Assembly: GCF_037042905.1 (NCBI RefSeq) | Contig: NC_087250.1 | Span: forward strand, 21,144,001 to 21,208,000 | DNA from: Lytechinus pictus | Taxonomy: Eukaryota | Length of the DNA: 64,000 nucleotides | Reading direction: 5' to 3' | Part shown: piece by piece, positions 10,111 to 64,000 of the stretch | Position numbering within the stretch: position 1 is the stretch's first letter | Layout: each line of letters starts with the position of its first letter | Notes under the pieces: generated by a model | What the model saw: the letters and a program-made list of their open reading frames with translations, nothing else | What the model was told of the DNA's origin: nothing | Database searches by the model: none | Translations under genes and position numbers: made by a program

Positions 10111-10235
10111 GCATGATATTCTTTTGTGGAAAAGAAAATTTGCTAAATGTATGCTGAAGCATCGTATTTCCATACCTCTTTGTGAATATATATTTTAAAA
10201 AAAATGATCCCTCAACTTGCCGCTTGAAAATATGT

Positions 10236-12479: not shown

Positions 12480-12519
<40 letters not shown>

Positions 12520-12564
12520 TGTCAATTTTTTTCTGGTACGAAATCCTTTATTTGTGATCGAAGA

Positions 12565-12599
<35 letters not shown>

Positions 12600-14195: not shown

Positions 14196-14204
14196 GGAAT
14201 TATT

Positions 14205-14949
14205 GGGGGAATTTCTTTCGGGAGATGGGGGCAGACGCGCGTAAACGCTCTCAAGTTGAAAGCGAGACAGCGAAGCGACCAAGCTTGTCATTTTGGCTTG
14301 GTCGCGTGGTTGTCTCGCTTTCAAGGTTTTTTTTTTAGAAAGTTTACGTGCGTCATGCTCCCCCCCCCCCCCTGAAAAAATTATGCGTGAGGCCATGGTG
14401 ATAATGAGAAAAAAAATATAAAAATAATGAAAATGAAAAGTATATATAAATCAATATGCCAGGCTCTTTTGAGCATGGCCGTACACATAATTTATTTCGG
14501 GGGGGGGAGCATGCGTGTAAACTCGTTCTCAAGTTGAAAGCGACACAGCGAAGCGACCAAGCTTGTCATTTGGGCACTTTTTGGAGTTTTAAAAGTGAAA
14601 TATGAAGGCTTTCGTGCACACTTTTGGTGAATTTTGTGATAATTTTCAATAGAAAAATAAGTTTTCAAAAATTTAGGGGTCATCATGCCCCCGTATTGTC
14701 GTTGCGAGCATTTTTGGGAAAAATTAACTTAACAAAAACAAAAACACAAAAAATTATAGAAAGTAGAAGGGCCTGATGCACTTACACTCACTCTCTCAGC
14801 TCATATGCACTTGATCCACTTCCATTAATGATCCGGATTTCGGGCTAAATTCCGCCCTACAGTTCCGGGGACCAACCAACGTAATATTTCGATGAAGAGC
14901 ATCTCGTCGATTCACCGGTTGTTCCCACTCACACGTATTGCGAGGTACC
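14205..14949. repeat. Block A: palindromic GCGAAGCGACCAAGCTTGTC repeat plus adjacent sequence, also present inside the neighbouring fold-back
   Basis: Direct match to ~17210-18034 and inverted match to ~16287-16900. Confidence 0.9.
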
Positions 14950-15289
14950 GTATACTAAGGTCGCACCATGAACCGCATTTTTCAGTGGATTTCTAACAAG
15001 TGGGTCTCGCGTGCTGGGATCTCACTTCTGGTGTCCACAACACGCAACTTCTATGGCTTAATTTTTCTGTGCGCGACAACATGTAATGTATGAGGCGCCG
15101 AATGTACCAATATTATATAGAACAATTATTTGTTATATAATCATTATTTATTAAATAATAACTATTATTTATATATAATTTACATTTTATTTGTAAATAA
15201 CTACTATTATATAAAATATCATTTATAATTATTTATATATAATTCCAAGTAATACTTCATTATTTGTAAATAATAATAGTTCGACATTC

Positions 15290-15645
15290 CATTATTTATA
15301 AATAATGATTATTTGTTTTTCATTATTTATAAATAATGATTATTTGTTTTTCATTATTTATAAACAATGATTATTTGTTTTTCATTATTTACAAATAATG
15401 ATTATTTGTTTTTCATTATTTATAAATAATGATTATTTGTTTTTCATTATTTATAAATAATGATAATTGGTTTTTCATTATTTACAAATAACGATTATTT
15501 GTTTTTCATTATTTATAAATAATGATTATTTGTTTTTCATTATTTATAAATAATGATAATTGGTTTCTCATTATTTATAAATAATGATTATTTGTTTTTC
15601 ATTATTTACAAATAATGATTATTTGTTTTTCATTATTTATAAATA
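15290..15645. repeat. 31-bp AT-rich minisatellite (left arm)
   Basis: Unit AATAATGATTATTTGTTTTTCATTATTTATA, containing the perfect palindrome CATTATTTATAAATAATG. Confidence 0.92.
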
Positions 15646-18600
15646 ATTTGTTGAGTTTTCCATTATTTATAAATAATGATTATTTGTTAAATAATGAAAA
15701 CGTCTACTTCATTATTTATAAATAATTTTTTCGAGTGCACCATTATTCTCATTATTTATAAATAATCATTATTTAATGTTCGAGTTTTCCATTATTTATA
15801 AATAAAGATTATTTGTTAAATAATGAAATACCTACTTCATTATTTATAAATAATAATTTTGTTTCAATATCCCATTAATCATTATTTATAAACAATTTTT
15901 ACAGTTTGCCATTATATACAAATAATCATTATTTATATACAAATAACCATTATTTATTAAATAATGCCATTATTTATTAAATAATGCCATTATTTATTAA
16001 ATAATGCCATTATTTATTAAATAATGGAAAACTCGCTATAACATGCAAATGTGGGACCGCCCATGATATGAATATTCATGATGCCATTTCCTTTTTCGTG
16101 ATTTTTCTTCACAAATTTTTGTCCATTTCCTCTTCATAATGACATTTCTTGAAGCAATTTTCTAGGGATATGGTCTGATTGTAATATTCTTCATTTTCTA
16201 TATAACTTCGTCTTCGTAGAAATATCAAAAAGTGTAATTTTATACGATTTTTCCTACAGTTCACAATCCCCATAGGCGCGCGTGTACGGTAGGGACAACC
16301 GGTGAATCGACGGAGTGCTCTTCATCGAAATACTACGTTGGTTGGTCCCCGGAAGTGGCGGGCGGAATTTAGCCCGAATCCTCGATGGAAGTCGATCAAG
16401 TGCATATGAGCTGAGAGAGTGAAATATCAGTGTACTTGTACAGGCCCTTCTACTTTTTATAAATATTTCTTGTTGCTTTTTTTGTTAAGTTAATTTTTCC
16501 TGGTGTAGAGATAAGTTTCAGTTCTAATAATGCACTTCAAATACATTTTGGAGTGTCTGTTTGAGGCGTTTGGGGCGATTTCACCCTGTCCCCAAAATGC
16601 TCGCAACGACAATACGGGGGCATGATGACCCCTAAATTTTTAAAAACTTATTTTTCTATTGAAAATTATCACAAAATTCACCAAAAGTGTGCACGAAAGC
16701 CTTCGTATTTCACTTTTAAAACTCCAAAAAGTGCCCAAATGACAAGCTTGGTCGCTTCGCTGTGTCGCTTTCAACTTGAGAACGTTTACGCGTCTGCTTC
16801 CCCCCCCCCCCCTCCTCCGAAAGAAATTATGTATACGGCCATGCTCTAAAGAGCCTGGCACATTGATTTATGTATACTTCATTTTCATTATTTTTATCTC
16901 ATTATCATCATGGCCTTACGCAGAATTTTTTACGGGGGGGGGGGGGGGTGGGGGGAGCAGGACGCGCGTAAACTTTCTCATTAAAATCTTGAAAAAGCGA
17001 AGCGACCAAGCTTGTCATTTGAGCTTGGTCGCGTCGCTGTCTCGCTTTCAAGATTTTTTTGAGAAACTTTACGCGCGTCCTAGCTGCTCCCCCCCCCCCC
17101 CCCCGGTAAAAATTCTGTGTAAGGCCATGATGATAATGTGATAAAAATAATGAAAATGAAAAGTACATATAAATCAATGTGCCATATGCTCTTTTGAGCA
17201 TGGCCGTTCACAGAATTTCTTTCGGGGGGTGGGGGCAGACGCGCGTAAACGTTCTCAAGTTGAAAGCGAGACAGCGAAGCGACCAAGCTTGTCATTTGGG
17301 CTTGGTCCCGTGGCTGTCTCGCTTTCAAGATTTTTTTTAGAAAGTTAACGCGCGTCATGCTCCGCGGCCCCGGCCCCCCTGGAAAAAATTCTGCGTAAGG
17401 CCATGTTGATAATGAGATAAAAATAATGAAAATGAAAGTATACATAAATCAATGTGCCAGGCTCTTTAGAGCATGGCCGTATACATAATTTCTTTCGGAG
17501 GAGGGGGGGGGGGATATATCGAAGCAGACGCGTAAACGTTCTCAAGTTGAATGCGACACAGCGAAGCGACCAAGCTTGTCATTTGGGCACTTTTTGGAGT
17601 TTTAAAAGTGAAATACGAAGGCTTTCGTGCACACTTTTGGTGAATTTTGAGATAATTTTCAATAGAAAAATAAGTTTTTTAAAATTTAGGGGTCATCATG
17701 CCCCCGTATTGTCATTGCGAGCATTTTGGGGCCAGGGTGAAATCGCCCCAAACGCCTCAAACAGACACTCCAAAATGTATTTGAAGTGCATTATTAGAAT
17801 TGAAACTTATCTCTACACCAGGAAAAATTAACTTAACAAAAAAAGCAACAAGAAATATTTATAAAAAGTAGAAGGGCCTGTACAAGTACACTGATATTTC
17901 ACTCTCTCAGCTCATATGCACTTGATCGACTTCCATCGAGGATTCGGGCTAAATTCCGCCCGCCACTTCCGGGGACCAACCAACGTAGTATTTCGATGAA
18001 GAGCACTCCGTCGATTCACCGGTTGTCCCTACCGTACACGCGCGCCTATGGGGATTGTGAACTGTAGGAAAAATCGTATAAAATTACACTTTTTGATATT
18101 TCTACGAAGACGAAGTTATATAGAAAATGAAGAATATTACAATCAGACCATATCCCTAGAAAATTGCTTCAAGAAATGTCATTATGAAGAGGAAATGGAC
18201 AAAAATTTGTGAAGAAAAATCACGAAAAAGGAAATGGCATCATGAATATTCATATCATGGGCGGTCCCACATTTGCATGTTATAGCGAGTTTTCCATTAT
18301 TTAATAAATAATGGCATTATTTAATAAATAATGGCATTATTTAATAAATAATGGCATTATTTAATAAATAATGGTTATTTGTATATAAATAATGATTATT
18401 TGTATATAATGGCAAACTGTAAAAATTGTTTATAAATAATGATTAATGGGATATTGAAACAAAATTATTATTTATAAATAATGAAGTAGATATTTCATTA
18501 TTTAACAAATAATCTTTATTTATAAATAATGGAAAACTCGAACATTAAATAATGATTATTTATAAATAATGAGAATAATGGTGCACTCGAAAAAATTATT

Positions 18601-18674
18601 TATAAATAATGAAGTAGACGTTTTCATTATTTAACAAATAATCATTATTTATAAATAATGGAAAACTCAACAAA

Positions 18675-19155
18675 TTATTTATAAATAATGAAAAACAAAT
18701 AATCATTATTTATAAATAATGAAAAACAAATAATCATTATTTGTAAATAATGAAAAACAAATAATCATTATTTATAAATAATGAAAAACAAATAATCATT
18801 ATTTGTAAATAATGAAAAACAAATAATCATTATTTATAAATAATGAAAAACAAATAATCATTATTTATAAATAATGAAAAACAAATAATCATTATTTGTA
18901 AATAATGAAAAACAAATAATCATTATTTATAAATAATGAAAAACAAATAATCATTATTTGTAAATAATGAAAAACAAATAATCATTATTTATAAATAATG
19001 AAAAACAAATAATCATTATTTATAAATAATGAAAAACAAATAATCATTATTTGTAAATAATGAAAAACAAATAATCATTATTTATAAATAATGAAAAACA
19101 AATAATCATTATTTATAAATAATGAAAAACAAATAATCATTATTTATAAATAATG
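18675..19155. repeat. 31-bp AT-rich minisatellite (right arm, more units than the left)
   Basis: Reverse complement of the left-arm unit. Confidence 0.92.
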
Positions 19156-19403
19156 GAATGTCCAACTATTATTATTTACAAATAATGAAGTATTACTTGG
19201 AATTATATATAAATAATTATAAATGATATTTTATATAATAGTAGTTATTTACAAATAAGATGTAAATTATATATAAATAATAGTTATTATTTAATAAATA
19301 ATGATTATATAACAAATAATTGTTCTATATAATATTGGTACATTCGGCGTCTCATAGTAATGAACCCTTGGGTTGTTCCTACGATCAGAGAGAAAATGTG
19401 AAA

Positions 19404-20714
19404 TACACGCGCGCCTACGGGGATTGTGAACTGTAGGAAAAATCGTATAAAATTACACTTTTTGATATTTCTACGAAGACGAAGTTATATAGAAAATGAA
19501 GACTATTACAACCAGACCATATCCCTAGAAAATTGCTTCAAGAAATGCCATTATGAAGAGGAAACGGACAAAAATTTGTGAAGAAAAATCACGAAAAAGG
19601 AAATCGGATCATGAATATTCATTTCATGGGCGGTCCCACATTTGCATGTTATAGCGAGTTTTCCATTATTTAATAAATAATGGTTATTTGTATATAAATA
19701 ATGATTATTTGTATATAATGGCAAACTGTAAAAATTGTTTATAAATAATGATTATTTATAAATAATGGGATATTGAAACAAAATTATTATTTATAAATAA
19801 TGAAGTAGATATTTCATTATTTAACAAATAATCTTTATTTATAAATAATGGAAATCTCGAACATTAAATAATGATTATTTATAAATAATGAAAATAATGG
19901 CGCACTCGAAAAAATTATTTATAAATAATGAAGTAGACGTTTTCATTATTTAACAAATAATCATTATTTATAAATAATGGGAAACTCAACAAATTATTTA
20001 TAAATAAAGAAATGTGCACTGACATTGTTAATAAATAATTATTTTTTATAAATAATAGAAAACTTATTTATAAATAATGGAAAAACGAATTGCAATTATT
20101 TATAAATAATGAAGTATGTAGTGTCATTATTTATAAATAATGAAAAACGAAAATCATTATTTATAAATAATAAAAGACAAATAATCATTATTTGTGAATA
20201 ATGAAAAACAAATAATCATTATTTATAAATAATGAAAAACAAATAATCATTATTTATAAATAATGAAAAACAAATAATCATTATTTATAAATAATGAAAA
20301 ACAAATAATCATTATTTATAAATAATGAAAAACAAATAATCATTATTTATAAATAATGAAAAACAAATAAAAATTATTTATAAATAATGAAAAACAAATA
20401 ATCATTATGTATAAATAATGAAAAACAAATAAAAATTATTTATAAATAATGAAAAACAAATAATCATTATTTATAAATAATGAAAAACATATAATCATTA
20501 TTTATAAATAATGGAATGTCGAACTATTATTATTTACAAATAATGAAGTATTACTTGGAATTATATATAAATAATTAGAAATGTTATTTTATATAATAAT
20601 AATTATTTACAAATAAAATGTAAATTATATATAAATAATAGTTATTATTTAATAAATAATGATTATATAACAAATAATTGTTCTATATAATATTGGTACA
20701 ATCGGCGCCTCATA
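19404..20714. mobile_element. Third copy of the ~1.3-kb minisatellite module (TACACGCGCGCC...GGCGCCTCATA)
   Basis: Direct repeat of 18035-19356. Its right flank is replaced by the Penelope insertion, so no TSD is visible. Confidence 0.85.
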
Positions 20715-26932: not shown

Positions 26933-26973
26933 TAGAGTTGAGATAGACTCAGTAGTCAGCACTCAGCATTTGT

Positions 26974-27225: not shown

Positions 27226-27438
27226 ATCATGATTAACATATACCCATCTCACTAACCAAATCTTGCGAGCGCGAAGCGCGAGCTGAAAATTTAGGAAATT
27301 CAGACCTGAAGAGGGGCATTTTAAGGCTTTGTTTGTAGGAATTCACGAAGACTATACGTAGTTCACTAACCAAATGATGCGAGCGCGAAGTGCGAGCTGA
27401 AAATTTTTGATATTCAGATTAGATAGGGGACATTTTAA

Positions 27439-28012
27439 AGGAGAATGAAACTCTTGGAGCAAGTTAGCTTTTGTGAAAGCAGAAAAATCAAAGAATAAGA
27501 TCAACAAAAGTTTGAGTAAAATAGGACTAGCAATAGAAGAGTTATGAGCATTTGAATGTCGAGATCACTAATGCTATGGAGATCCTCCCATTGGCAATGC
27601 GACCAAGATCTATGATGTCACAGATGAACAACTCTCCCCTTTTGGACACTGAAAATATACCCCAAAACATTGCTTTTTGCTCATTCTAATCATATGACAA
27701 ACGATTCATCAATGATAATAATGTTGTGAAACCTCTGTACTTGTCCTCTCATAAAGATAACACCTCACCTTGTGATAGACTCTATAAAAGTGAGAATAGA
27801 AGTGAAATAAGTACTAAAGTAATGAGGGAGTTGTACGTGTGTGACATCACATATTGCCAATGGGAGGATCTACATGGCATTAGTGATCTCAATATTCAAA
27901 TGCTCATAACTTTCTTATTATTCATTCAATCTTCCTCAAACTTTCAACAATATGTTTCTTTGATTTTTCTCTTTGATATGGATTCAGCTGGTTTCAAGGG
28001 TTTCATTCTCCT
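27439..28012. mobile_element. Kolobok-like MITE
   Basis: TTAA|AGGAGAATGAAAC ... GTTTCATTCTCCT|TTAA. Confidence 0.85.
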
Positions 28013-29169: not shown

Positions 29170-30236
29170 CACAATTCCAGCGCCCCCTCGTTCTCACATC
29201 AATTTGGCGCCCCCCTCGTTCGAGCATCAATTTGGCGCCCCTAGTTCGAACATTGAATCGGCGCCCCCCGATGTCGAACATAAATTTTGCGCCCCTACGT
29301 CGAACATCAATTCGGCGCAACCCCCCCCCCCCCCCCTACGTCGAACATCTATTTGGCCTCCCTATGTCGAACATCAATTTGGCGCCCCCAGTTCAAATTA
29401 ATAGAAATTCGGCGCCCCCTAGTTCAAACATCAATGTGGTGCCCCTAGTTCGAACATCAATTCGGCGCCCCTACATGTAGGTCGATCATCAATTCGCCCC
29501 CCCCCCCCCGTTCGAACATCAATTCGGCCCCCAGTTCGAACATCATTTTGGCATACCTTCGAACTCAATTTGCCTTCCCTAGTTCGAATATCATTTCGCC
29601 CCCCCTAGCTCGAGTTTCAATTTGGCGCCCCCTAGTTCGAACATCAATTCGGCGCCCCCTAGTTTGAGTATCAATTTGGCGCCCCCCTAGCTCGAACATC
29701 GATCCCCCCCCCCCCAGTTCGAGTATCAATTTGGCGCCCCCAGTTAGAACATCATTTTAACATTCCTTCGAACATCATTTCGGCGCCCTCCTAGTTCGAA
29801 TATCAATTCGGCGCCCCTACATGTAGGTCGATCATCAATTCGGCCCCCCCGTTCGAACATCATTTTGGCATCCATTCGAACTCAATTTGCCTTCCCTAGT
29901 TCGAATATCATTTCGCCCCCCTCGTTCGAACATCAATTTGGCGCCCCAAGTTCGAATTAATAGCAATTCGGCGCCCCCTAGTTCGAATATCAATTCGGCG
30001 CCCCTACATGTAGGTCCAACATCAATTTGGCGCCCCTAGTTCGAATATCATTTCGCCCCCCCCCTAGCTCGAGTATCATTTTGGCGCCCCCTAGTTCCAA
30101 CATCAATTTGGCGCCCCTACGTCGAACATCAATTCCCCCCCCCCCCCCCGTTCGAACATCCATTCGGCCCCCAGTTCGAACATCATTTTGACATTCCTTC
30201 GGACATCATTTCGGCGCCCTTTTGGTTCGAACATCA
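29170..30236. repeat. ~28-bp GC-rich minisatellite
   Basis: Unit approximately TTCGGCGCCCCTAGTTCGAACATCAAT, more than 30 diverged copies. Confidence 0.92.
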
Positions 30237-30237
30237 T

Positions 30238-30930
30238 TTTCTTTCTTCCCTCTTCATCTCTCTCCTTTTCCCCTCTTCCTCTCTCTTCTTTCCCCGCTTT
30301 CTCTTTTTTCTTCCCCCTCCCCCTCCCTTTTTCTTCTCTTCCTTCCCCCTCTTCCTCCTTTTTCTTTCCCCTATTCTCCTTTTTTTCTTTCTTCTCTTCT
30401 TTTTTCTTCTTTTCTTTCCCCTCTCCTTTTTCTTCTCTTCTTTCCTCCCTCTTCCTCTTTCTCCTTTTCCTTTCCCCTCTTCCTCTTTTTTCTTCCCCCT
30501 CTCCCTCCCCCTCCCTTTTCTTTTCTTTTCTTCTCTTCCTCTTTTTTCTCCTTTTCTTTCCTCTTTTTCCTCTCTCTCTTTTTCTTCTCCTTTTCCTTTC
30601 CCTCTCTTTCTTTCACCTTTTCCTCTCCCTTTTCCTTCCCTTCCTTTCCTTCCTTCCCCCTCTTCCCTTTTTCTTCTTTTCTTTCCCCCTTTCCTCTCTC
30701 TTTTTTCTCCTCTTCTTCCTTCCCCCTCTCTTTTCCCCTCTCTCTCTCTTCTCTTCTTTCCTCCTTCTTCCTCCCTTTTTTTTTCTCCTTTTCCTTTCCC
30801 CCTCTCCTCTTTTCTTTTCCCCTTTTCCTCTCTCTTTTTTCTTCCCTTCTTACTCCTCTTCCTTTCTTCTTTTTCTTATTTTCTTTCCCCTCTTCCCCTC
30901 TTTCTTTCCCTCTCTTCTTCTTTTTTTTTG
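30238..30930. repeat. Polypyrimidine (CT-rich) tract
   Basis: Nearly pure C/T. Similar tracts lie at ~50985-51350 and ~52540-53220. Confidence 0.92.
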
Positions 30931-31217
30931 CCGAAGGGGGGGGGGGCAAGGCCCCCTCGGCCCCCCCCCCCCCATGGATCCGCGCCTGTCTGACCCAATG
31001 TATCGTATTTTTTTTTTCTTTTTTTCTTTTGCCTTCAGTGCATATTGTCACGGTTCGGCGTTTCATCATATCGTAATTTCGTTATTGGCCTAACAATGTT
31101 TTTTTTACGAATTTAGTTGCGTTGTAGCGTGAGGGCTTTTTGAATGAAATCAAAGGAAAGCTATTTTTCCTTCAATTTATCAGAAGCAAAATGAAACTGC
31201 ACCCTTCTTACTTCTCG

Positions 31218-43784: not shown

Positions 43785-44379
43785 AGGGGAATCCAGCCTT
43801 GGCCATAAAATGTTGTGTTGGGAAGGAGAAAAATAAATTAAACAGAATGGTGAAAGTTTGAAAGAAATCGGACAAGCAATAAGAAAGTTATAGCTGCTTT
43901 AAAATTGAGATCACTAATACTATGTAGATTTCAAATTGGCAACTGGGTCAGTAAATTATGACAAGGGGCAAGGACAACTTTCCCACAGGCCATGTACTTT
44001 ATTATCAGGGATTTGTGGTTTTCTCCTAAGTACCCATTCCCCTGGGGTAGTTATCTAAATATAACCCATGTAGTATATTGTTTTATGTCTTCATGAAAGA
44101 AAAATATAATTTGAAATAAAACTTTTGGGAAAAATGACATTTTAGCCATAATATGTACTGGAGTACATAGAAGAGTAGTCCTTGCCTTACATCACTATGA
44201 CATCCCATATGCGGCCAATTTGAAGTCTCCATGGGTATAGTGATTACCAATAGATACAACTTTTAAAAATTCATAACTTTCTTGTTGTTTGTCCAATATT
44301 GTTCAAACTTTCACCTATCAACTTGTCTGATTTTTCTTTTCCTTATAAAAACAAGTTTTTATTTGGGTTGGATTCCCCT
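43785..44379. mobile_element. Kolobok-like MITE
   Basis: TTAA|AGGGGAATCCA ... TGGATTCCCCT|TTAA. Confidence 0.85.
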
Positions 44380-48865: not shown

Positions 48866-50601
48866 CTAAAACGAGACACAAAACAATATAAATGCCACCG
48901 AGATAAACAACATTCATTAGTGATGACACATTTTTCAATTTGTATATGATTTTTAACGTAACGGGAACGGAGACAATTTTTTTGGTTGATATACATTGGT
49001 TTTGATAATTATACACCCCTTGTTTTTGTTGCCTCCTTCATTTGGTTGTAACCCTCGTCCTATTCGGAGCCCACGCCCATAGCCCTGGGAAGCGCAGGTG
49101 CTGAAGCGTCCCAATATCTATTTATTTCATGTATTTATTTAATTTATTTATTGATTTAAATATTAATTTATTTATTATCATGATTATTACTTTTCTGGGG
49201 GGGGGGGGGGTGCTGTGAATGTTATACACCATAGGCAATTCCCCCTGAAAACCACTTGGTGTGCAAATTGTAAAATACTTATTTCATTTAAAAAATAGTT
49301 CCCATGTCCCTGTCCATTCCCCTTTTTATCAAATTTTCCTACCGTCCCCTATCTCGCTAATTTGTTTAATATATCTTCATTTCGTCTATATCTTTTTATT
49401 CGTCTGCCGGTTATTGCGCTTACAATCCTCTTTATAGTATCATTTTAATCTACAATATGATTATACGATCAGATAAATAATTTTCTTTTGATAAAATGGA
49501 AAAGCGAAATATAGAATATTGGGAAAATTGGTTAGATGTTTGCTTCCTTTTGTTAGTTTCGTTTCGATTTTCAATTTTTATTTTCACGGAACGATAACGG
49601 GAAAAAAATTTAAACAAAACGAAACTTTTGTTTTGGTTTTAGCTATTGATTCTTCAATTCTTACTTTATTTTGGTGAAATGAAACTTAAATGGTCTTAAG
49701 GCACAGACACTTGTTCTTTTTTGCATAGTGCAGGGTCTGAAGCAGTTAGGCTAAAATCAATAAGTTATGTGACTGACTCTACTCTCATTTCACGCAAGAT
49801 TGGGGTCAGTGCTTGCAGACTAATATCTTAATGGTCATTTCTGGGGTTATCCTTACTTTGATCTTGTTTCTAGAAATTGGAAACTAAGTCCCTCCTATAT
49901 CAAAATGCTGTAATTTTGAATGGAATAATTTTGAGATATAATATTTCGTAGGTGGTTTTCTAGAGTCATAAAGCAACTCTTGGGGAAAATAAAATCGATC
50001 GGTTTATTCATGCATGGGTAATCAAAGATTGAATCAAAAATTATATTTTTCACAGTCACAAGTTTTTTCATCAGATTATGTAAATACAAAGTTGGGCGAA
50101 TGCTTTTCTTTTGTGGTGAGTTTTATGGTGCTTATGATGTTTCACTATCCATCATTTAGCCACTCTACATACAATTTTGATAGCGTCTGTTCATGGTTAA
50201 GTGAGCACATTTTTGTGACGCATCATCATAGGGTTTTATGGTAGTATCCTCTATAACTTAAAAAAATACACGTAAGAATTGAAAAGTGTTAGTGGCTCCC
50301 CTCCCCCAATTTCTCGCCCCCCTTCCCATTTTCAAATTCTGAATCCACCACTGATTTGTCCATAAATTTAACTGATCCTGAGAAATTGTTAGGAAATGGA
50401 TGCATTTATGCTACACAAGAGTATTCATTCCTAAGTTTTCAAGTGTAAAAAACTTCAGAAAGTGTGCGGTGATAAAAATGACTGAAGATAAAACCAACAG
50501 CAATCAAATCACATTTGAAACGGAATTTGCCCCTTTATAACCCCGCAAAATAACTGTGACATTGAAAATGCATTTTTTTCCCTCTTGGATGCGTGCTCAT
50601 A

Positions 50602-53600
50602 CCACTGAACTAGAGATACGTGGAATACGTGTCCCTATTCCCAACGTACACAAAGCCGTGCGGCAACGAAGAGCATCGGACTTCACGCTCGACTGAGCGC
50701 GCCGCCATTTTGCTAGGTCAATACTGGCTAGTCGACAAATGCTGCGTGAAGGCAGATGGGAGAAAGGAACGCAAAGAAAGTGTTCCTTGTGCTGTTTAAA
50801 GTTTTAGTTTGCTTTGTTACATCATGAAATATATGTTATTGAATACTTTCATAACTGAAAATGTTGATTTAGTCACATTTTTGTATTAAAGGGGAGTTAG
50901 GGGAGTAAATATACAGACATGAAATCATAAAAACTCGACCTTTTTCACGCGCACACTATGACAAAGAAAGGCCCAACAACAACTCTCTCTTATTTCTCCC
51001 CTTTATATCATCTCGATCTCCCTCTTTATTATTTTACCTTTCTCTTTGGCTTCTTTCTCTCTGATTTTCCTCTTCTTTTCATCTCTCTCTCTCTTACCTT
51101 CCCTTTCTATATATCCCCCTTATATCTCTCTTTTATTTCCCCATCTCCCTTATATCAAGCCCTCTTATCTCCCTCTCGTCTCGCCTTTCTCTCCTCACCT
51201 CTTTCTCATTCCTCGTCATTTCCCCCTTTCTCTCCCTCTCTCTCTTTGATCTTCCTCTTCTTTCCATCTCTTCTCGTTGATCGTCTGTTTCTTTTTTTCT
51301 CTCCGGCTGCATCTTTACCATTTTGCCTTTCTCATTTCAACTTTCTCTATATAAATTTTGAGTAAATATTCCCTTCCCTCCCTCTCATACTGTTCAATCA
51401 CACATTTAGGGTGAAAAATTTGATAGAAGTTTGAGGACAAGAAGGTTGTTACTTTTAATGAGCCTTCAAAGTTGGACCCTCGTGTGCTCAGCCATGAAAT
51501 ATCTACTAAGTACAGTGTATATAAAAATGGGCACAATATAATTTGAATTCTTATGAAATTTAATTTGGAAGAGCATGGATGTTGCACGACATGTGCTTAT
51601 ACATCAATACACCTTTACATAAAGGAAGGGGTGATGGATAAACAAATTCAACTCTAACAAGTTTACTAATTAGAGCACAGATCAGAAAAACATAGCAATG
51701 GTAATTCCATTTAAAAAGTTGTGGCACTAAATTTCGCTTATTTTCACATACCAGATAATTATATGCATATCCTGGTCAGTATATTAAATATTCCACATGT
51801 CAAAAATTGCACAAAAAGGCCACTACCTCTTGTCAAATATTTCCAGGGTGACCAGACGTCCCGTATTTCCCGGGATCGTCCCGTGTTTTGCTCCTTTGTC
51901 CCGGCGTCCCGACAAACCCTTTCCGGGACACCTATCTGTCCCGTATTTTTAAAATATTGAACAAAATGTAGTTGATACATTTAAAAGTGACGAATTTTCA
52001 TCAAATAACCTAACAGATGACGAAGCAGAGACAACAATAAATCGATAACTAAACTTTTGCAAAGTTTTGCGGGTGATTTTTATCCTAACCCAATAGGCCT
52101 ACATTGCAAACGAGCAGCTGCTGGCTTCCTGCCTGTGTGTGGCAGGCTCTATGCATGTAGGATCGGAGCAGATTCTCAATGGTGCAAACAATCTCACATG
52201 ATAAACAGTTTTTCCACCAATATAATCGCAAAATCGGCGGGAAATGTTTATGATCATATATTATAGATTCTCAGATTACTGATTTAATAGGAGGAACAAG
52301 TTTTTTAATTTTCATAACTGGATCTACATGTAGTTGTTTTAGCTTTCGTTTTGAGTCTTGTTGTGTAGGATGCCGGCGCTGTTTCCTCTAATTTGTAAGT
52401 TGACAATGTTTCACTTTGAAATTTTATTCATTTCTAAACCACTTAGTTTTTCAAAATTTTAAAGATAAAAAACACCAAATATATCATTGTTATTTCTGTT
52501 AGAAGATTGGATTGCTTTTGTTTGCTTGAAGTTTGAACTTTTTCCTCTTTCATTTTTATTCTTCATCCTTCTATCCTTCCTGCTTGCTTTTTTTGTTCCA
52601 TCTATCTTTTAATATTTCCTACCTTGCTTTCCTGATCCAGTCTGTGTGTTAATTTTCTTTCTTTCCTTCTTTCTCTTATCTGCCCTTTTTATCTACTTCC
52701 TTCTCCCTTCCTCACCTTTAATTTCTTTTCGTTTTTTCTCTCCTTCCATTATTTTTTTTTCATTCTCTCATCCCTCCAATCTTTCCTCCCTCTCTTTCAT
52801 TCTTTCTTTCATTCTTTATTCTATTTTTCCTTCTAATTCTTTCTTTCTTTCCCTCCTTTCCTTCCCCCTTCATGTTTTCTTCTTTCTTCGTTTCTTTCTT
52901 TCAAAGAATGAAAACATTTTTCTTTCCGGCATTCTTTGTTTCCCTTCTTTTTCTTACTTTTTCTTTCTCACCTTTATTTTGTCTGTCACACATCTTCCCT
53001 TTAATTCTTTCTTTTTCTTTCTTTCTATATTCAATGAATTCAACGAATGACGGAAACCTTTTATTCTCTTTTATTCTTTCTTTCATCGTCTTTTTAATTA
53101 TTCTAACTTTCTTTCATGTTTTCCCCTTCATTTTTTCTTTCTTCTTTCTCATTTCATTTCTTTTCTTTCTCTCCTTCATTCTTTCGTTCACCCTCCCTTC
53201 CAATTCTTTATATTTTTTCTCACAAGTATAATACTGTGTAGCCTTCTTTGATTATCTTTTTTTTATGGATTGTCCCGTATTTCATTTTTTGAAATCTGGT
53301 CACCCTGATTTAAACCCTTTTTTTAAACTACATGAATACCAGGTCCCAGTACATTGTGCATATAGAAATATGTTTGTACATGATTGGCTTAATGACATTA
53401 AAATACACTTTGCCACACTAAGTAGTACATCAGTATTAATCTTATATTTATAGAGAAAACATATTGCATCTTGCACATACTTTCAATTGCCTTCTACGGC
53501 GCGTTCTCGAACAATTGACCTAGCAAAATGGCGGCGGTCACGTGACTTATCGAGTTCGCCGGCGATGTTTTGCTTGGGTGAACACGACTTCCACGTATCT

Positions 53601-53612
53601 CTAGTTCAGTGG
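50602..53612. mobile_element. 3-kb non-autonomous TIR element
   Basis: 24-bp perfect TIR CCACTGAACTAGAGATACGTGGAA and subterminal IR GCCGCCATTTTGCTAGGTCAAT. CTCATA (or GCTCATAC) is duplicated at both ends. Confidence 0.85.
51844..53307. mobile_element. hAT-like non-autonomous element (nested)
   Basis: TIR CAGGGTGACCAGA / TCTGGTCACCCTG with subterminal GTCCCG motifs. No recognisable TSD. Confidence 0.75.
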
Positions 53613-53660
53613 CTCATACGAAGCCCCAAACCGGACATTTTTGACAACGAAAAAAAAAAA

Positions 53661-53816
53661 ATTATTACGTACGTACGTGGTATTACTACGTACGTACGTA
53701 GTAATTATTACGTACGTACGTAGTAATTATTACGTACGTACGTAGTATTTATTACGTACGTACGTAGTATTTATTACGTACGTACGTAGTATTATTACGT
53801 ACGTACGTAATATTAA
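53661..53816. repeat. 21-bp TACGTACGTACGTA minisatellite (also at 56571-56830 and 62412-62626)
   Basis: Palindromic core ATTACGTACGTACGTAAT in tandem. Confidence 0.95.
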
Positions 53817-54294
53817 TAAGCACCTCGCCGAACCTGTCGGGGAACCTGTATAGAGTTTGGATTAATATATGGATGCCAAATTTGTTCATTCATTTATTTC
53901 GATTTCCCCGCCTTTTGAGGGCTTTTGTGACTCCGGGGTGCGCGTGATTACATATTCACATTACAGCACATTGAATGATCGCTATGTGAGTTTGCTGGAC
54001 GATATGGGGAGAGCGGGGGCGGGGCCGGGTCACCTCTCCCACGTGTGATCGAGCCTCGTAGTCAGTTTAATGGCGTGGCAAGAATCAAAATTATCTATAT
54101 TGTACGGTCAAAGAAACATCGTCATAAAAATCCACTGGGGCCAGCATAGGCAGATCCAGGTGGTAAAGGGGCCGCCCCTCCCCCATTGCAATGGCGACGC
54201 GAAAAAAGGGGGAAAGAAAGAAAAAAAAAGGAAAGGAGGGAAGGGAAAGGAAAGGAAAGGATTTAAAAAAGAGGCAAATAAGAATAGGGAGCTA

Positions 54295-54978
54295 TTACAA
54301 TGCTATAAAACATTGGAATTCCCTTCCCAATGATATAAAGGAAATAAGAAACTTTTTGCATTTTAAGAGGAAATTGAAAGAATATCTTTCACTTGAGAGT
54401 CAAAAAGAAGATGCAAATGATATGTTGTACGGTTGATTTAGCCTGAATACTGACCTAGTTCTTTTCTCTTCTCTACTAGGTATTATTATGTATTTTACAT
54501 AGTTTGATTGAAGCTTCGATATGTCCTTTTTTCTATTCTTTCTATTTATTTTATCTCTTCCTATTCTCTTCTTCGTGTTGTTATTGTCGTCACGTTTTTG
54601 CTGTTGTTCTTCTGATTTATTTTCCTTCGTTATCAGTTTCTTCCGTCTCCTTCTACTCCTCGTCCCCTCTCTTCTTCTGTTCCTCCTCTTCCTTCTCCTT
54701 CTTTTCTTCTTCTTCGTTATATTCTTGTATATATCTTATTTATTGTCTATATATCTTATTTATTGGTAATAGTGAATTCTGATTTTTTTTCTTCATTTTT
54801 AATATGTAAATAGTATAATTTTACCATTTTATTAGCTTAATTCTGTATATTGAGGACCCCACTGGAAATAAGCTTTCGAGCTTTCATGGGTCATCCTGTG
54901 CAAGCCTGTTGTTTTAATGCTACTGTATATATGTTATGGTGACTTGCCAAATAAAATCAATCAATCAATCAATCAATC
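54295..54978 (+). mobile_element. 5'-truncated L2/Crack LINE 3' end inserted in the left arm
   Basis: YNAIKHWNSLPNDIKEI..FKRKLK, 3' stem-loop, AATAAA plus (TCAA)n tail, TSD GAGCTA. Absent from the right arm. Confidence 0.88.
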
Positions 54979-57113
54979 GAGCTAGACGAGTGAATGAAAA
55001 TAAGGTGAGGGGAAAACTTTGAAAATAAAAAAATCTTGATCATGCAGCTATATACAGTATATAAATTTTTTGCTCTTGCTCCGCGCTCTCGTTGCCTGTT
55101 ATGAGATAGGCCTACATATATCTTGCTCAACAGGCTGAAATGGAGATAAACAAAACATATTCAGCTCGGACATCGAGCTTTTATTTATTTTGTGTAATTT
55201 ACAAATTGATTTTTAAGTGCTCTGTATTTTTTTTTAATGCATGGTCTGCATCTCAAAATATCTCAGCTCGAGCTTCGCCCTCGCGCATTATTCATGTGGG
55301 AAATTAACCATCCTTTTCATGAAAATATGACTAGAGTATATAGGCCTATCCTATTTCGGGATTTAAATTTCAAACTTTGCGCTCGCATCAATCTGCCTAT
55401 ATCATGTTCATAATTATAAAAAAAGGTGCTTAGAATGTCCAGTTTTTAGGTCCGAATATCAATTTTTTGCATTTTTTTTCTCGGGCACTTTAATCTTTAA
55501 AAGGGCACCGACAAAAGTTTAAGATTTAGATAGCAGTATAACTAAACAATTTATTGATGCGAGCGGAAAAAAGTTTGAGATCGAGATCTAAAAACTGAAT
55601 ATTATATTTTTAATTATGAAAAGGATGGTTATCTTCCTTTATGAATAATGCGAGCGCGAAGGAATACAAATAATGCAACTAAACAATAATTGATGCGGCG
55701 AGCGCAAAGCACGAGCGGAAAAAGTGTGAGATTTAAGAAAACGGGATACTCTATTTTGTTACTATATATTTTTTTAACCTAGTTTTTAATTTAATGACAG
55801 GCCGAATGAGAACGCGAAATTTTGGAATTCATACAGAAGTATTCTCACTAACCAAAACACGAGCTCGCAGTGCTAGTTGATATTTTTTTACAATAAGACC
55901 TGAACAATAGACCATCTTGAGAACTTTATGGAATACACGAAGAAGGACCTAGTTCACGTTTCAAATAATGCGAGTGCATATCAGACAAAATAATGAATGC
56001 TCTATGTCTGAAATGGAATATGTTTGTGTACTGACTTAAAATTGAATATTTTAAGCTCCATATCAACCTCTATAAATTGACATGAAAGATTACTTTTTCA
56101 AAGTCTTCGACTGCCCCCCTCATTTTATTCACTCGTGACCCGTCTTCATTATTTCTTTTTACCCTCTCCTTTCCTTTTTTTTCTTTTTGAGTCCCGAAGT
56201 TTTCTTACTGCGCCGCCAATAGGGGGAAGGGGGGGGGGGCGCTTTCCTTTTCTCTTGGATCCGCCTTTGCTGACCCCTGCACTTAACAAAAAATCTTTTA
56301 GGATGTTGGTGATAATAGCAATGTTTCTATGAACGTACATTATGCTAATTTTTATGTTCTTGTTACTCCACAAACTGACTTAGCTCGATCACATAATGTA
56401 TCAATATTATAATGCCAACACTATTATGGGAGGGGTGACCCCCTTAAGTGTCCAGCAGATCTATAGTCACAAAAGGTGTGGAAATCGAAAGATTGACATC
56501 CATCAAAAGTAGTCAAAATCTATAGTCCGACTGTCATTGATCTGTTAAGATTACAGGTTCGACGAGGTGCTTATTACGTACGTACGTGATGAATATTACG
56601 TACGTACGTGATAATACTACGTACGTACGTGATAATACTACGTACGTACGTGATAATACTACGTACGTACGTGATAATACTACGTACGTACGTGATAATA
56701 CTACGTACGTACGTGATAAATATTACGTACGTACGTAATAATACTACGTACGTACGTGATAATACTACGTACGTACATAATAAATACTACGTACGTACGT
56801 AATAAATACTACGTACGTACGTAATAATTAAATGCTAAATAAATCCCTTTTGTTCAGGTCTGATTGCAAAAATATATCAGCTAGCACTACGCGCTCGCAT
56901 TTTGGTTAGTGAGAATACTTCTGTATGAATTCCAAAATTTCGCGTTCTCATTTAGCCTATTATTAAATGAAAAAAAAAATCCTTTTTATGAATTCATAAT
57001 CCTTATTGTCTCTTTTTTCAGATCGGAATATCAACAATATTTTCAGCTCGCCCTTAGGTAGAGGAACTAATAATAGTTATCCTTTTCATATGATGACAAA
57101 ATGTGCTTAGAAT

Positions 57114-59742
57114 GGTGAATTATCGGATGGTCTAATACCACATGGTCTATTATCAGTTCGTCTAACTTCACATGGTCTAAACTCATTTCGTCTACAACCA
57201 GTTCGTCTAATATCCAATTCGTCTAATTCCCACTTGGTCTAATATCCAATTCGTCTAATTTCCATTTGGGCTAATAACCAGTTGGGCTAATTTCCACTTG
57301 GTCTAATATCCAATTCGTCTAATTCCCACTTGGTCTAATATCCAATTGGTCTAATGAGCAGTTGGGCTAAAACCATTTAGTCTAATTTTCAGTTGGTCTA
57401 ACACCACTTGGTCTAATTTCCACTTTGGCTAATTTCCACTTGGTCTAATTATCACTTTGTCTAATTGCCACATGGTCTAATGACCGTTTGGTCTAATTTC
57501 CACTTGGTCTAATTTCCATTTAGTCTAATTTCCACTTGGTCTGATAGCCAAATGGTCTAATAACCAGTTGGGCTAATCGTCACTTGGTCTAATTTCCATT
57601 TGGTCTAATTCACACTTGGTCTAATGTCCATTTATTCTAATATAGCATCATTATTATTCATTTTATCTAGAATTAGCAAATATGGTACGTAATGGATAAA
57701 TACCATGCATCAGTTAATACATATCGCCAGGATCCGGAGGGGTAGAGCTGGTGGGCGAAAAAACCTCACCGTGAAGGACTATCGATGACAAGATAGTCGC
57801 TCATCAAATTAATTATTCTAATAAAATAATTCTCATAATTAGGCCTGTTTATCGATTATAAGATGATGATAAAAATTATATCATACTCATAATCATTACA
57901 TCACCGCATGCACATTTACAGAACAATAAGTTGGGGACCTTGTAGCTTATAATGGTCGAATGGCGGGGTTTCATCAGAATAAAATTATTATGAAGAAAGG
58001 AACGAAAATATAATGTAATTGATTATGTGGATACGTATCTGGTAAACATGTTTATGCCTCTTTTAAATCATTGTTATGCACCATTACGGACGATACTTGA
58101 ACTTGATGGCCTAGTTATGCAGTTTGGGGGATTCCAAAACTTACAAAGCCATTAGATCATGCAATTTTGTTATGAATATTTGTTTAGTTATTTCAATAGT
58201 AAGACCAGTTAGATATAGTTTGATAACACTATACAGGTCTATTGGGTTAGCTGCGACAACATCACTGCGACCATCTTGGTAGCAGCCACATAATTCTGAC
58301 GTGTAATAACATAGTATACATGTAGTCTACGCTTGCAGACCTTTATCAGTTATCACCACAGTAGTCATTCATCTTATATATCTTCTCATTCTGTTTTTGT
58401 TCTACTTCTTTGCCTCTTCCTTAAAATGGATTGGCAAGGTTCCCACCCCATCAGGGAAATCAAGGAAATCAGGGATTTTTTAAAAACGTTTTTCCAGTCA
58501 GGGATTGCCTCAAATCCGGGGAAAATGCCTCAAATGACGGCAAAATCAGGGAATTTTGATCGGCCCAAAAGTCGAAAGCATGATAGTCAGTGAGACTCTG
58601 TTATATTTTGTTGTATATTAAAACAACATTCATTGAATGACATGTTATGGTGGTTTTTTTTAGTGTAGCCTCTTCTACTACAATACAAGTATAGGCCTAC
58701 TGGTACATTAATTATACATGCATAACTAAACTAATAATAATACATGTAATTCACTGCAACAACTTAGAAAACATGAGAAACTGGGAATGGGTTTAAATGA
58801 TTATTAAGGAATTTTTAAACTTCATTAGAGATATCAGGGATTTTTGTTTTCTTGAAAAGTTGGGAACCATGATTGGGATAAGCCAGCGTTAACTATCTAC
58901 AGTAGATCGTATACATAGAGGTGAATAAATAAACATATTTTTCACCTCTATATTAGCATTATTTTACAGAAAAATAGCAAATTTTGTTGTTTTCACCAAA
59001 ACCTTCAAAAATCCCCTGAAACAGACAAAAAAATCCCCAAAGTTTGTTTAATCCCTAAATAATTTTTTTCGTCCCCACAGGCTCTCGAAAATCCCCATAT
59101 TTTCAAAATTCAGTTGGGGACGAAATATACGTCACTCTAACTGTACTCCAATATCGAGGGGCGCGCATGTGAAGATTCGAAGCCGGCGCGCGGAAAGTAA
59201 CTTTAAAAATTTCACCAGAAAATTGAAAAGAAGTCACCATGCAGATTTTACAAATTAGACCAAATGGCGTGTAGACGAAATGAATGTTAGACTATCTGGA
59301 AATTAGACCAAGTGGAAATTAGCCGAAGTGGAAATTAGACCAACTGCACATTAGACCAACTGCACATTAGACCAAATGAATAATAGACCAAGTGAGGATT
59401 AGACCAACTGGTATTAGACCTACTAATATAAGCCCAACCGACTATTAGACGAACTGGTATTAGACCAAATGAAATTAGACCAAGTGAAAATAAAATAAAT
59501 TAGACGAAATGGCAATTAGACCAAATGAAAATTAGACCAAGTGACGATTAGCCCAACTGGGCATTAGACCAAGTGGCTATTAGACGAAGTGGTCATTAGA
59601 CCAAGTGGCCATTAGACCAAGTGGATATTAGACCAAGTGGTCATTAGACCAAAAGAGAATTGGACTAAGTGGGTTTAGCCCGAATGTTGTTAGCCCATCT
59701 GATGATTAGACCAAGTGATAATAGACCATCCGTCAGTAAACC
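57114..59742. mobile_element. Merlin-like non-autonomous element with inverted minisatellite arms
   Basis: Imperfect GGT...ACC TIRs and exact 8-bp TSD CTTAGAAT. ~18-bp TTGGTCTAA arrays (57140-57640) face TTAGACCAA arrays (59255-59730). Confidence 0.75.
58435..58871. mobile_element. hAT-like MITE (nested)
   Basis: CAAGGTTCCCA / TGGGAACCATG with subterminal ATCAGGGA repeats. Confidence 0.65.
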
Positions 59743-60119
59743 CTTAGAATGTCCCGTTTCTATGTTAAATAAATATAGTAACAAAATAGAGTATCCCGTT
59801 TTCTTAAATCTCACACTTTTTCCGCTCGTGCTTTGCGCTCGCCGCATCAATTATTGTTTAGTTGCATATTTTGTATTCCTTCGCGCTCGCATTATTCATA
59901 AAGGAAGATAACTACCCTTTTCATAATTAAAAAATATAATATTCAGTTTTTAGATCTCAAATCTCAAACTTTTTCCGCTCGCATCAATAAATTGTTTAGT
60001 TATACTGCTATCTAAATCTTAAACTTTTGTCGGTGCCCTTTAAAGATTAAAGTGCCCGAAAAAAAGCAAAAAATTGATATTCGGACATAAAAACTGGACA
60101 TTCTAAGCACTTTTTTTAA

Positions 60120-61564
60120 AGTTGAATTAAGAAGGGGGTGAGTTTCCATAAATATAGGTTCTACACACAATATATAGTATATATAAGTAGTTCAAACAGA
60201 TAGCATGTCACAAAAATCCTCTGCCTTCTCGATATTTTGCTTTGAAAGTCTATGAAATTAGCCACCTGTCAGAGCCCGAGAGACGAGTGTACAGAAAAGC
60301 CACTCGGAGTGTGACGTCACCGGGGGGAATTTAGTATAAGAGGTGCCTGAATGTCATACAGAAATGCTATGCAGAGAGAGAAAGATATTTTACAATTTTT
60401 TTTCAAAGCAACTCAAATCAAACAAATAGGACTGATATGTACAAATCTTTACTTTCCCTGTATAAAAAACAGTATGAATAACCATCATGAACTCTTCAAT
60501 CATGATGTAAGATAGCAAACAGTGAGTTATTGAATGATATTTTCACTATTTCTTATTTATTTTATCACGATGTTCAATCAAGTGAATAGCTGGAAAGTAA
60601 TTCCGGCGGCTAGCTCAGCTCTCGCTCAGCGCGCGCTGAACGCATAATACTAGTACACACAGTACAACACCCAGGCATTGAGTGTACTGTTATGGTCTGG
60701 TATGTCGACTTAGTTCATGGCCGTGCAGCGATCCCCTGGCGTTTTTTCTTCTTTTCTTTTGTCTTTGACTCCACTTTTATATCCTCTGGATCATTTCCAC
60801 TCATAGCTCATTCCACAGAACAATCTTGAACCAAACGTATTATTCTTTCTCGGCCTTCTGAGTTGTTTTCTATATTTAATTACGCTAGGGGTCACCGTCA
60901 CACATACAAACGCAATTCGCAAGTGAGTTGAAGACAGAGAGATATAATCTATGGTTGAAGACAACAAGAAAGGTATGCGGTACGGTGTAGCTCGACAGCT
61001 AGCTGCGCCGGAGCGGGCGGCCGGTCGGCACAAAGCAATTCCGCAACCAACTGTGTTTTTTGCAAGAGCCGCGTCACACGCGGATAAATATGTCATAATA
61101 ACACGTCTGCTACGTTATCGACTGGTGAGAAGATCTCGATCAAATTTCATATTATTCACCTTGAAATTATTCCTTTAGGGTCTATGGTATCATTCTGAGG
61201 GAATTTACATATTTGGAATAATAGTACGGCCACAAATATTTTAATCATTTCCTCTTTGCAAGTTCTATGGCTCGCAGATACAACTTCAACTGCAGTTATT
61301 CCATATGAAGGCGTACAAAGCGGCACTGCCTTGTTTACTACACCGGGACCGAATACCCCCCGGTGACGTCACACTCAAAGAACACCCGTCTCGGTAGGCA
61401 TTGCAGGAGCGAACTCAGGGAAAATGGGTAGGGATAAATCGTTCAAATTCACTATTTTGAAAAAAGAAAATGGGGGGTCGAATCACCTCTTAGTGTTTGG
61501 GGGGTTGTAAGGTTGCTATTAATGTAAATATCTCAATATTTGGAATCGTCTTCTTAATTCAACT
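60120..61564. mobile_element. Kolobok-like non-autonomous element inserted in the right arm
   Basis: TTAA|AGTTGAATTAAGAAG ... CTTCTTAATTCAACT|TTAA, internal IR GTGTGACGTCACCGGGGG. Absent from the left arm. Confidence 0.88.
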
Positions 61565-64000
61565 TTAAATAATTATGATCACGATATAGGCAGATTGATG
61601 TGTGCGCAAAGTTTGAAATTTAAATCCCAAAATAGGATATAGGCCTATATTCTCTAGTCGTATTTTCATGAAAAGGATATATTTTCCCACATGAATAATG
61701 CGCGTGGGCGAAGCTCGAGCTGAGATATTTCGAGATGCAGACCATTAAAAAAATACAGAGCACTTAAAAATGAATTTGTAAATTACACAAAATAAATAAA
61801 TCTCCATGTCTGAGCTGAATATGTTTTGTTTATCTCCATTTCAGCCTGTTGAGTAAGATATGTAGGCCTATCTCATAACAGGCAACGAGAGCGCGGAGCA
61901 AGAGCAAAAAAAATTATATACTATGTAGCTGCATGATCAAGATTTTTTTATTTTCAAAGTTTTCCCCTCACCTTATTTTCATTCACTCGTCTCCCTATTG
62001 TTATTTGCCTCTTTCCTTTCCCTTCCCTCTCCTTTTTTTTTCTTTCTTTCCCCCTCTTTTCGCGTCGCCAATGGAGGAGGGGCGGCCCCTTTACCACGTA
62101 GTGGATCTGCCTATGCTGGCCCCTGGATTTTTATGACGATGTTTCTTTGACCGTACAATATAGTTAATTTTGATTCTTACCACGCCACAAAGTGACTACA
62201 AAGCTCGATCACACGTACGTGGGAGAGGTGACCCCCGCCCCCCGCTCCCCATATCGTCCAGCAAACTCACATAGCGATCATTCAATGTGCTGTAATGTGA
62301 ATATGTAGTCACACCCAGGAGTCACAAAAGGCGGGGAAATTGAAAAATTTGACATCCATAAATTAATCCAAACTCTATATACAGGTTCCTCGACAGGTTC
62401 GGCGAGGTGCTTATTATGTACGTACGTAATAAATACTACGTACGTACGTAATAATACTACGTACGTACGTAATAAATACTACGTACGTACGTAATAATTA
62501 CTACGTACGTACGTAATAATACTACGTACGTACGTAATAATACCACGTACGTACGTAATAATTACTACGTACGTACGTAATAATACTACGTACGTACGTA
62601 ATAATACCACGTACGTACGTAATAATTTTTTTTTTTTCGTTGTCAAACATGTCCGGTTTGGGGCTTCGTATGCTCATCATCCATAAATAAACAAATCGAT
62701 TTCATTTTTGCACAGAATTCCGCCCACAGGATGATAAACATTACTGTCAAATGACATTGATTAAGACAGCTTTGAAAGAAAGTTCCACCATATTAAATGA
62801 GGGGTTACTTATTCTTAAAGGTCCTATGACACCAATTCCATCTCATCTAGATACATATCTATTATTAGGTAGTTTTACTTGAAAAATACGAATTTGCCAT
62901 CGGTTCCTGTGTACGACGAACTGGTGTTGAGTTATTCCATGGAAATTAACTTCAACGGGAACGCCCACTAAAATTTTCGAAAGAGTCCGACCGATCGACC
63001 TGTCAATCATTGTGACGTCATCGAAGGAAGGCTTTCCCAGCTGTGCAGCCGGACCCCTAGTTATTGTACACGTTCCTCGTGTAGTTGCTGTTTCGAACGA
63101 GCTCATCCTTAACGGATTTTTTAAAGATTTTTATGATGTTTTGATCATGGCTGCAGCATCGTCATCAGCTGCGTCTGATTCTTCAGACTTTGAAGATTCA
63201 GGTTCTGAATATTATTCCAGCAATTCAATTTATTTACTTTGGATCCACATGTGCAACCAAAATAAACACTTCACGCTCCGAACGTGAACAACACTCAGCA
63301 GCTTCCTTCCCTGACGTCATAATTGTCACGTGATATATACGAAACCAAATCTGGCTGAATTTTTTTGGGAGGGGCGAATTTGGCTCAATTTTCAATATAA
63401 AACTGCCTTTGAACCTGATGTGGGATATTTTTGGGTAAAATTTTGATGGAATCGTAATTAGTAACTACTAAGCTAACGAATAAGTCAGCATCTTTGCTGT
63501 ATTTCATGGCACCTTTAAACATATTCACCCATAGTGTACAAAATGTATATGACAGAGGAAACCAAAATTTTAATAAAATGGAAATGAGGGTTTGTTTCAT
63601 AGACGGTTTTTGTTACTTTTGCCAACTTTTTTCCATGAAACTTTGCCCATGGCATCAGTGTGACACTATCCAAAAAGTGCGCACACTAAAATAATCATTC
63701 GGTACAGCACAGTGTGGGAACAAGGCCTTGAACTTTCTTCGTTTTTGCATAATTTTCGAATATATTGTGCTCACTGAAGCATAATGCACCGGGATTTCAT
63801 AAAAATTATATCAAATGAACTATGCAAGAAGGTTTGTGACAGATATCCATAGTTAGCAATTGCATTTTTCCCAATAGAGTAAAAAAAAAAGAGCTATTCA
63901 CATTCCTCATGTTCATTCAAGCGGGAATGTTTAATTTAAACGCCTTTGAATCACTGAAACATGTTAATTTGTCATGAACTTAACGAAAAAAAGTTGATAA

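Follow-up and report, generated by a model that had tools for sequence, protein, structure and literature searches.

Limits of the element

The 64,000-nucleotide stretch of Lytechinus pictus DNA analysed here (the window, whose position numbers are used throughout) is animal-like DNA rich in mobile elements, with 31-45% GC outside its arrays. At 53617..62670 it holds a genuine transposable unit without genes, which has two inverted arms and a core of about 4.3 kb and reaches 9 kb after later insertions. The unit of ~4.28 kb inserted into a dispersed repeat, of which on the preferred reading it duplicated 6 bp, and four unrelated elements landed later inside the unit or on its left junction. 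It is probably a cut-and-paste DNA transposon of the non-autonomous kind, with a foldback structure and ends of IS3EU/GingerRoot type, built by inverted copying of its left end (probability about 0.6). Its limits are marked by these features (TIR, terminal inverted repeat).

53617..53659, + strand: left terminal domain, 43 bp, opening with TACGAAGC
62628..62670, - strand: right terminal domain, the complement of TACGAAGC, ending at 62670
50594..50599, + strand: true left copy of the target duplication (TGCTCA), pushed away by the neighbour's insertion; backed by empty-site loose ends
62671..62676, + strand: right copy of the 6-bp target duplication
50603..53611, no strand: later hAT-like non-coding TIR element with CA..TG ends, ~3 kb, inserted over the left junction

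The 6-bp flank duplication reported in an earlier note on this DNA becomes exact when the neighbour is removed. In place only 5/6 bases match, because the hAT-like neighbour landed across the left junction; excising 50603-53611 leaves a perfect 6-bp duplication, for which the chance is 4e-4 at the composition of the window. The neighbour itself has TIRs alike in 28/30 bases, and its exact 8-bp duplication (50595-50602 = 53612-53619) takes in five left-flank bases and the first three bases of the element. We take the neighbour to be hAT-like from its end type. A reading of it with CC..GG ends and a 6-bp duplication was superseded by CA..TG ends with 8 bp.

The empty site is found in other sequence data. 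Contigs from four of 17 public sequencing runs (X1, X2, X3 and X13) were compared with the window, and the empty-site join is seen in all four, with 1 contig in X1, 4 in X13, 58 in X3 and 39 in X2. The empty-site contigs, drawn from the loose ends listed (24 of 3913), match from 62677 on and run back into sequence like 50571-50599. The insertion target is itself a dispersed repeat. A joint from 53647 to 56594 in X2 and X3, with a side of 31, may mean that shared sequence begins at 53617; its short side is ambiguous and it was not used. Scans for the terminal motif gave no matches in viral contigs (two scans) or prokaryote genomes. In metagenomes there were two matches in contigs of 49-59% GC, where the similarity ends after 20-24 bases, and these were taken as chance.

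Arms and nested insertions

The arms are collinear, and most of the apparent size comes from later insertions. The features are as follows (LINE and SINE, long and short interspersed nuclear elements; MITE, miniature inverted-repeat transposable element).

53816..54292, + strand: left inner domain, differing from its right-arm counterpart at 17 of 414 aligned bases
61992..62410, - strand: right inner domain
54983..55910, + strand: left recruited segment, blocks A, B and C, dispersed-repeat sequence
61569..61991, - strand: right recruited segment, block A', 19 mismatches in 420
59751..60119, - strand: right recruited segment, block B', 9 mismatches in 356
54293..54978, + strand: later insertion, LINE/SINE-like tail, 5'-truncated, ending (AATC)n, with a 4-5-bp duplication; missing from the right arm
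57114..59742, no strand: later insertion, unrelated foldback element with GG..CC ends, an 8-bp duplication and non-palindromic 16-bp arrays
58435-58871: 437-bp MITE inside the 57114..59742 foldback, with a 5-bp duplication
60120..61564, no strand: later insertion, non-coding element in a TTAA duplication with AG..CT ends; an X1 contig has it with foreign flank

Each arm runs from the 43-bp tip through an array and an inner domain of ~0.45 kb to ~0.93 kb of recruited inner sequence. The arms measure 1608 and 1738 bp, together 3346 of 9054 bp (37%), and flank a 936-bp centre. The three nested elements, each with its own target duplication, contribute ~4.8 of the 9.05 kb, leaving a core of 4276-4278 bp. 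The size of the "giant fold-back" of the earlier note thus comes mostly from later insertions, and the element as a whole is no giant palindrome. Its kb-scale inverted cargo is present, with ~1.4 kb of shared block order. The two ends that it called identical are nearly so at the tips (42/43 bases alike), but the arms differ by 2.5-4.5% plus many indels, with 13 gap events in the inner domain. The innermost block C, which sits past a 148-bp indel, has 14 mismatches in 128 bases and is more diverged than the outer blocks (45/1190; Fisher P 0.001).

The recruited segments are repetitive. Repeats like them lie in another part of the window (27247-27440, 68-87%), and the summed contig depth of the segments in X2 is 7,437-15,668 versus 136-191 for the inner domain, a measure that is a hint of repeat nature and is not read as copy number. 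Both facts would suit a view of the locus as one-off repeat debris, in which an abundant repeat inserted independently into a short-TIR element to give the inverted blocks, and the arrays grew as neutral microsatellites. This is quite improbable. In both arms the inner domain meets the recruited segment at one and the same junction, and the blocks follow in the same order over ~1.4 kb; the recruited segments therefore derive from one duplication or two sister copies, not from independent insertions. The arrays described below do not look like neutral growth either, since every one of their cores has the same number of words.

The insertions have features of their own. Ten X2 contigs extend upstream of 54293, and the LINE label of 54293..54978 is inferred. 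The 57114-59742 element is a TU-like foldback with imperfect tips (22/30) and 16-bp arrays of ~33 and ~24 units. The element at 60120..61564 is presumably Kolobok-like.

Subterminal arrays

Three arrays of short units with a palindromic core lie in the element, one in each arm and a third in the centre at 56571-56830 with 12 units.

53660..53815, + strand: left array, 7 units with an (ACGT)3 core, 21-22-bp period
62411..62627, - strand: right array, 10 units

Each of the 29 cores is built of exactly three ACGT words, and slippage variants are absent. Changes are concentrated in the spacers, at 15/208 spacer bases versus 2/348 core bases (P 1.7e-5, an overstated value given the dependence among units of an array). 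There are 85 CpG in the 636 bp of array, and both core changes are at CpG; the CpG observed/expected ratio of the window is 0.83. The earlier note described 18-bp palindromes. Palindrome-cored subterminal arrays do exist here, but the quoted 18-bp form is exact in only 2/29 units. The usual perfect palindrome is 12-14 bp, because the core consists of three ACGT words, and any run of (ACGT)n is necessarily a palindrome. The left end folds strongly as a single strand (z -7.2), which follows from palindromes in tandem and has no bearing on function.

The arrays may serve as transposase binding sites. This fits the conserved cores and has a precedent in Muta1, discussed below. Their 21-22-bp period would be about two helical turns, and the 31-bp period of the arrays in a second element at 15-19 kb about three. 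That element also has palindromic units (16-20 bp), while the arrays of the nested GG..CC foldback at 57114-59742 contain no palindrome of at least 10 bp. Within the window, palindromic units are thus found in 2/2 elements with TA..TA ends versus 0/1 other array-bearing foldbacks, too few to generalise.

The relic end and the probable origin of the arms

The centre of the element retains the remains of a third end.

55911..56094, no strand: unpaired central sequence, bridged by an X13 contig
56095..56830, - strand: internal relic end, an inner domain and the 12-unit array in right-end orientation, with no terminal domain
56831..57113, - strand: junction to the inverted copy, with block C' (56847-56974) and most of the 148-bp stretch missing from the left arm

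The relic end is homologous to the arms, with an alignment score of 8 versus at most -256 in 20 shuffles. It is 17% diverged and equally far from both arms (64/374 and 65/377), with 30 gap events. Its links are found in other runs, at 55828-56236 and 56346-56604 in X13 and at 56005-56286 in X2, from the pieces listed (32 of 18248). The junction of the array with the inverted segment (56805-57096) is present in an X3 contig, which has 27 differing letters and 14 gaps in 284 (~90% identity) and could be the orthologue or another copy. All but one of the differing letters (26 of 27) fall inside the array. A junction that is present in another run at ~90% identity is therefore old and not an assembly artefact.

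This anatomy suggests a stepwise origin. The ancestor would have been a simpler element of ~2.5 kb, with a left end, a middle and a right end, and with diverged ends. A break at or near the right tip may have been repaired by inverted copying of the left end and the adjacent middle. If the inverted copy was fused to the old right array at its outer edge, the product would have two left-type ends. Later exchange between the arms would have kept the outer blocks alike, with the innermost block, past the 148-bp indel, left to drift. The tips would be cut by a transposase acting in trans, presumably an integrase-type DDE enzyme, which would also load on the arrays.

The main rival, which accounts for the same anatomy in this single copy, is a tail-to-tail pair of related elements. 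They would have arisen by double insertion or a local hop and lost their inner tips by deletion, and the mirror symmetry would be that of two sister copies. Sister copies would account for the 11% difference and 148-bp indel at block C and for the many indels between the arms, and a 5/6 match to the target word stands at the junction (56833-56838). However, a 5/6 word is expected by chance about once per six such searches (estimated with a rate of 0.007). Near the junction, a comparison allowing up to 12 edits in 31 found no trace of a terminal domain, and no remnant of a second relic end is seen. Overall the sister pair is unlikely, and inverted copying of the left end is preferred.

The element at 15-19 kb

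A second element in the window was described in the earlier note as sharing the design of the first.

15089..19356, no strand: comparison element, 4268 bp, with TA..TA ends, an exact 6-bp duplication and 31-bp arrays
14209..20714, no strand: older copy from the same family that hosts the comparison element, made up of 14209-15088 plus 19363-20714

Collinearity with 17213-19356, at 3-11% difference, extends over the segments 14209-14928 and 19404-20714, and the 15-19 kb element is therefore nested inside an older member of its family; capture of flank by the element was considered and rejected in favour of this. The arms of the 15-19 kb element differ at 6/774 positions, so that by arm divergence it is much younger than 53617..62670. 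Its 6-bp duplication is the longest exact reading with complementary ends. Its centre (16733-17588) consists of ~277-bp units in both orientations.

The two elements share a plan and little sequence. That they are unrelated in sequence holds in a BLASTN comparison of the 14209-20714 region with 53617..62670, which gave no match at E<=1 (dust on). The first 14 terminal bases agree at 10/14 positions (binomial P 7e-4). TA..TA ends, palindrome-cored arrays, long inverted arms and, on the longest exact reading of the flanks of 53617..62670, a 6-bp duplication are common to both, but the third end-like module drops out of the shared design. Inside 53617..62670 it is a tip-less relic, and at 15-19 kb it is the intact right end of the host copy. 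The two core sizes are also nearly equal, 4268 bp for 15089-19356 and 4276-4278 bp for 53617-62670 after insertion removal. This likeness is probably chance, and the figure changes with the choice of insertions to remove.

The foldback plan is not confined to elements with TA..TA ends. A recurrent mechanism particular to these ends had been proposed from the two cases, and it is weakened by foldbacks in the window that have other ends (57114-59742 and 25173-26934). In a stronger version, head-to-head end duplication would arise repeatedly in the IS3EU/GingerRoot elements of this lineage by a route peculiar to them, linked to tips nicked or broken by an integrase-type transposase. Each family would bind helically phased, family-specific palindrome arrays (21-22 and 31 bp, with ATTA..TAAT-like outer half-sites), and the near-equal cores and tip insertions would be products of the mechanism. 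This proposal is very unlikely.

Class assignment

The putative membership of 53617..62670 in IS3EU/GingerRoot comes from its ends only. TA..TA termini are found under the longest exact reading of the duplication. The structural features of a foldback element are all present, namely long TIRs, a tandem-repeat outer domain, an inner domain, a variable non-coding middle and a flanking target duplication. No exact 7- or 8-bp duplication was found around the element at shifts of -2 to +2, and it has neither the 7-8-bp duplication of the Galileo/P superfamily nor the 8-9-bp duplication and G-starting ends of Mutator-like foldbacks; the nested 57114-59742 element does fit the latter. Polinton/Maverick, with AG-starting termini and a 6-bp duplication, was rejected because the ends begin with TA. 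Among 93 frames compared with Pfam only a control LINE frame passed the cut-off (LINE reverse transcriptase, 6448-7248); two weak matches below it were dropped. Rfam gave no matches in 50000-64000.

A different class is conceivable and highly improbable. The element would have CA..TG ends and a 2-bp duplication, EnSpm/CACTA-like or unclassified, and its likeness to the 15-19 kb element would be superficial. The duplication is as exact at 2 bp (CA..TG ends) or 4 bp (A..T ends) as at 6 bp, because the target word starts with TG and ends with CA, and past the tip BLASTN finds nothing in common with the 15-19 kb element. The 6-bp reading is preferred, as it is the longest exact one and puts the tip in register with that of the 15-19 kb element. 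EnSpm/CACTA ends start with CAC and have a 2-3-bp duplication; the 2-bp reading gives ends that begin CAT, and the class was rejected.

The ambiguous length of the duplication is one of several points that weigh against the IS3EU-type foldback built by inverted copying. The empty-site contigs have one base more than the right flank in the window. No second full copy of the element was seen, and no listed contig spans all of it. No transposase was found, as 0/89 frames from the two elements, the insertions and the neighbour reached the Pfam cut-off. The extra divergence of block C could just as well stem from two source copies. The dependence among array units and the built-in symmetry of (ACGT)n count here too, as does a difference from the Galileo model, in which the old end is overwritten (PMC3573991); here the old end is retained.

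Relation to known elements

Galileo, Tetris and Muta1 already provide published cases of long arms bearing repeat arrays, of arms that grow by inner copying and of arrays as transposase sites. TA..TA ends, usually with a 6-bp duplication, characterise the IS3EU families, which belong to a single lineage with GingerRoot (PMC10045372), and this combination is the signature of the group (PMC10045372, PMC6839031). The fungal families end in TAYGG..CCRTA (PMC12730594), clubmoss GingerRoot TIRs are 100-150 bp, and AG-starting termini mark the Polinton end type (PMC6839031). The element shares the TA..TA ends and, on the preferred reading, the 6-bp duplication, and it starts with TAYG as the fungal families do. 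It differs in that it has no transposase, its arms are 1.6-1.7 kb and carry minisatellite arrays, and its fifth base is A, not G.

Flies, plants and sea urchin all have elements with foldback architecture, for which independent origins in several lineages have been proposed (PMC4079207). Like Tetris, FB and sea-urchin TU, the element is non-coding and has long TIRs with a flanking domain, a tandem-repeat outer domain, an inner domain and a variable middle (PMC4079207). It differs from them in its own end type, the putative 6-bp duplication, the short palindrome-cored units and the relic end in the middle. The TU details are general background.

Galileo provides a precedent for the proposed route. 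Its TIRs lengthen by array change, by taking up inner sequence as an inverted copy and through nested elements, and a 9-kb copy consisting of two TIRs is reported (PMC4168063, PMC3573991). The route TIR1-F1-F1-TIR2 proposed for it is the same inverted-copy route, and the modes of TIR growth are the same (PMC3573991). In contrast to the present element, Galileo has a 7-8-bp duplication and a P-type transposase. In Muta1, subterminal repeats have been shown by experiment to raise transposase binding and excision, and these repeats are 12 bp long with variation confined to the linkers, as here (PMC5499845). Unlike the present element, Muta1 is autonomous, with an 8-9-bp duplication, GG..CC ends, a 145-bp TIR and a palindrome at the tip rather than in the repeats (PMC5499845). 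By analogy, 53617..62670 probably works like a Galileo- or Tetris-type foldback with IS3EU-type ends. A literature search, made mostly at the level of paper listings, found no paper on IS3EU elements with foldback arms, and Repbase, subscription journals and supplements may hold such families. It found no biochemistry of IS3EU/GingerRoot, which has received little study.

Other elements in the window

Several neighbouring elements were noted. An inverted Penelope-like segment starts exactly at the last base of the right tip of the older host copy (20714/20715). We presume the Penelope label from open reading frames at 21012-22132. The orientation of this segment fits complementary DNA primed at a nicked transposon end, in this one case. 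Two of the five TA..TA-type tips in the window have another element directly on the tip (the 53617 junction and 20714). The element at 25173-26934, presumably Tc1/mariner-like, has 508-bp inverted arms (83%) and a CAGTG start after TA, and its duplication is not clean. Two short TIR elements with TTAA duplications (27439-28012 and 43785-44379) are related to each other, and a 26-bp minisatellite of ~30 units followed by a long pyrimidine tract lies at 29172-30950.

Significance

The locus illustrates how nested insertions can disguise a target duplication and inflate the apparent size of an element. The element does not reveal a new kind of system. Its retained relic end offers a rare snapshot of the growth of foldback arms. 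If non-autonomous IS3EU/GingerRoot elements do have phased palindrome-cored arrays, such arrays would be ready substrates for the study of end recognition by the transposase and would extend the view that foldback structure arises repeatedly in unrelated superfamilies.

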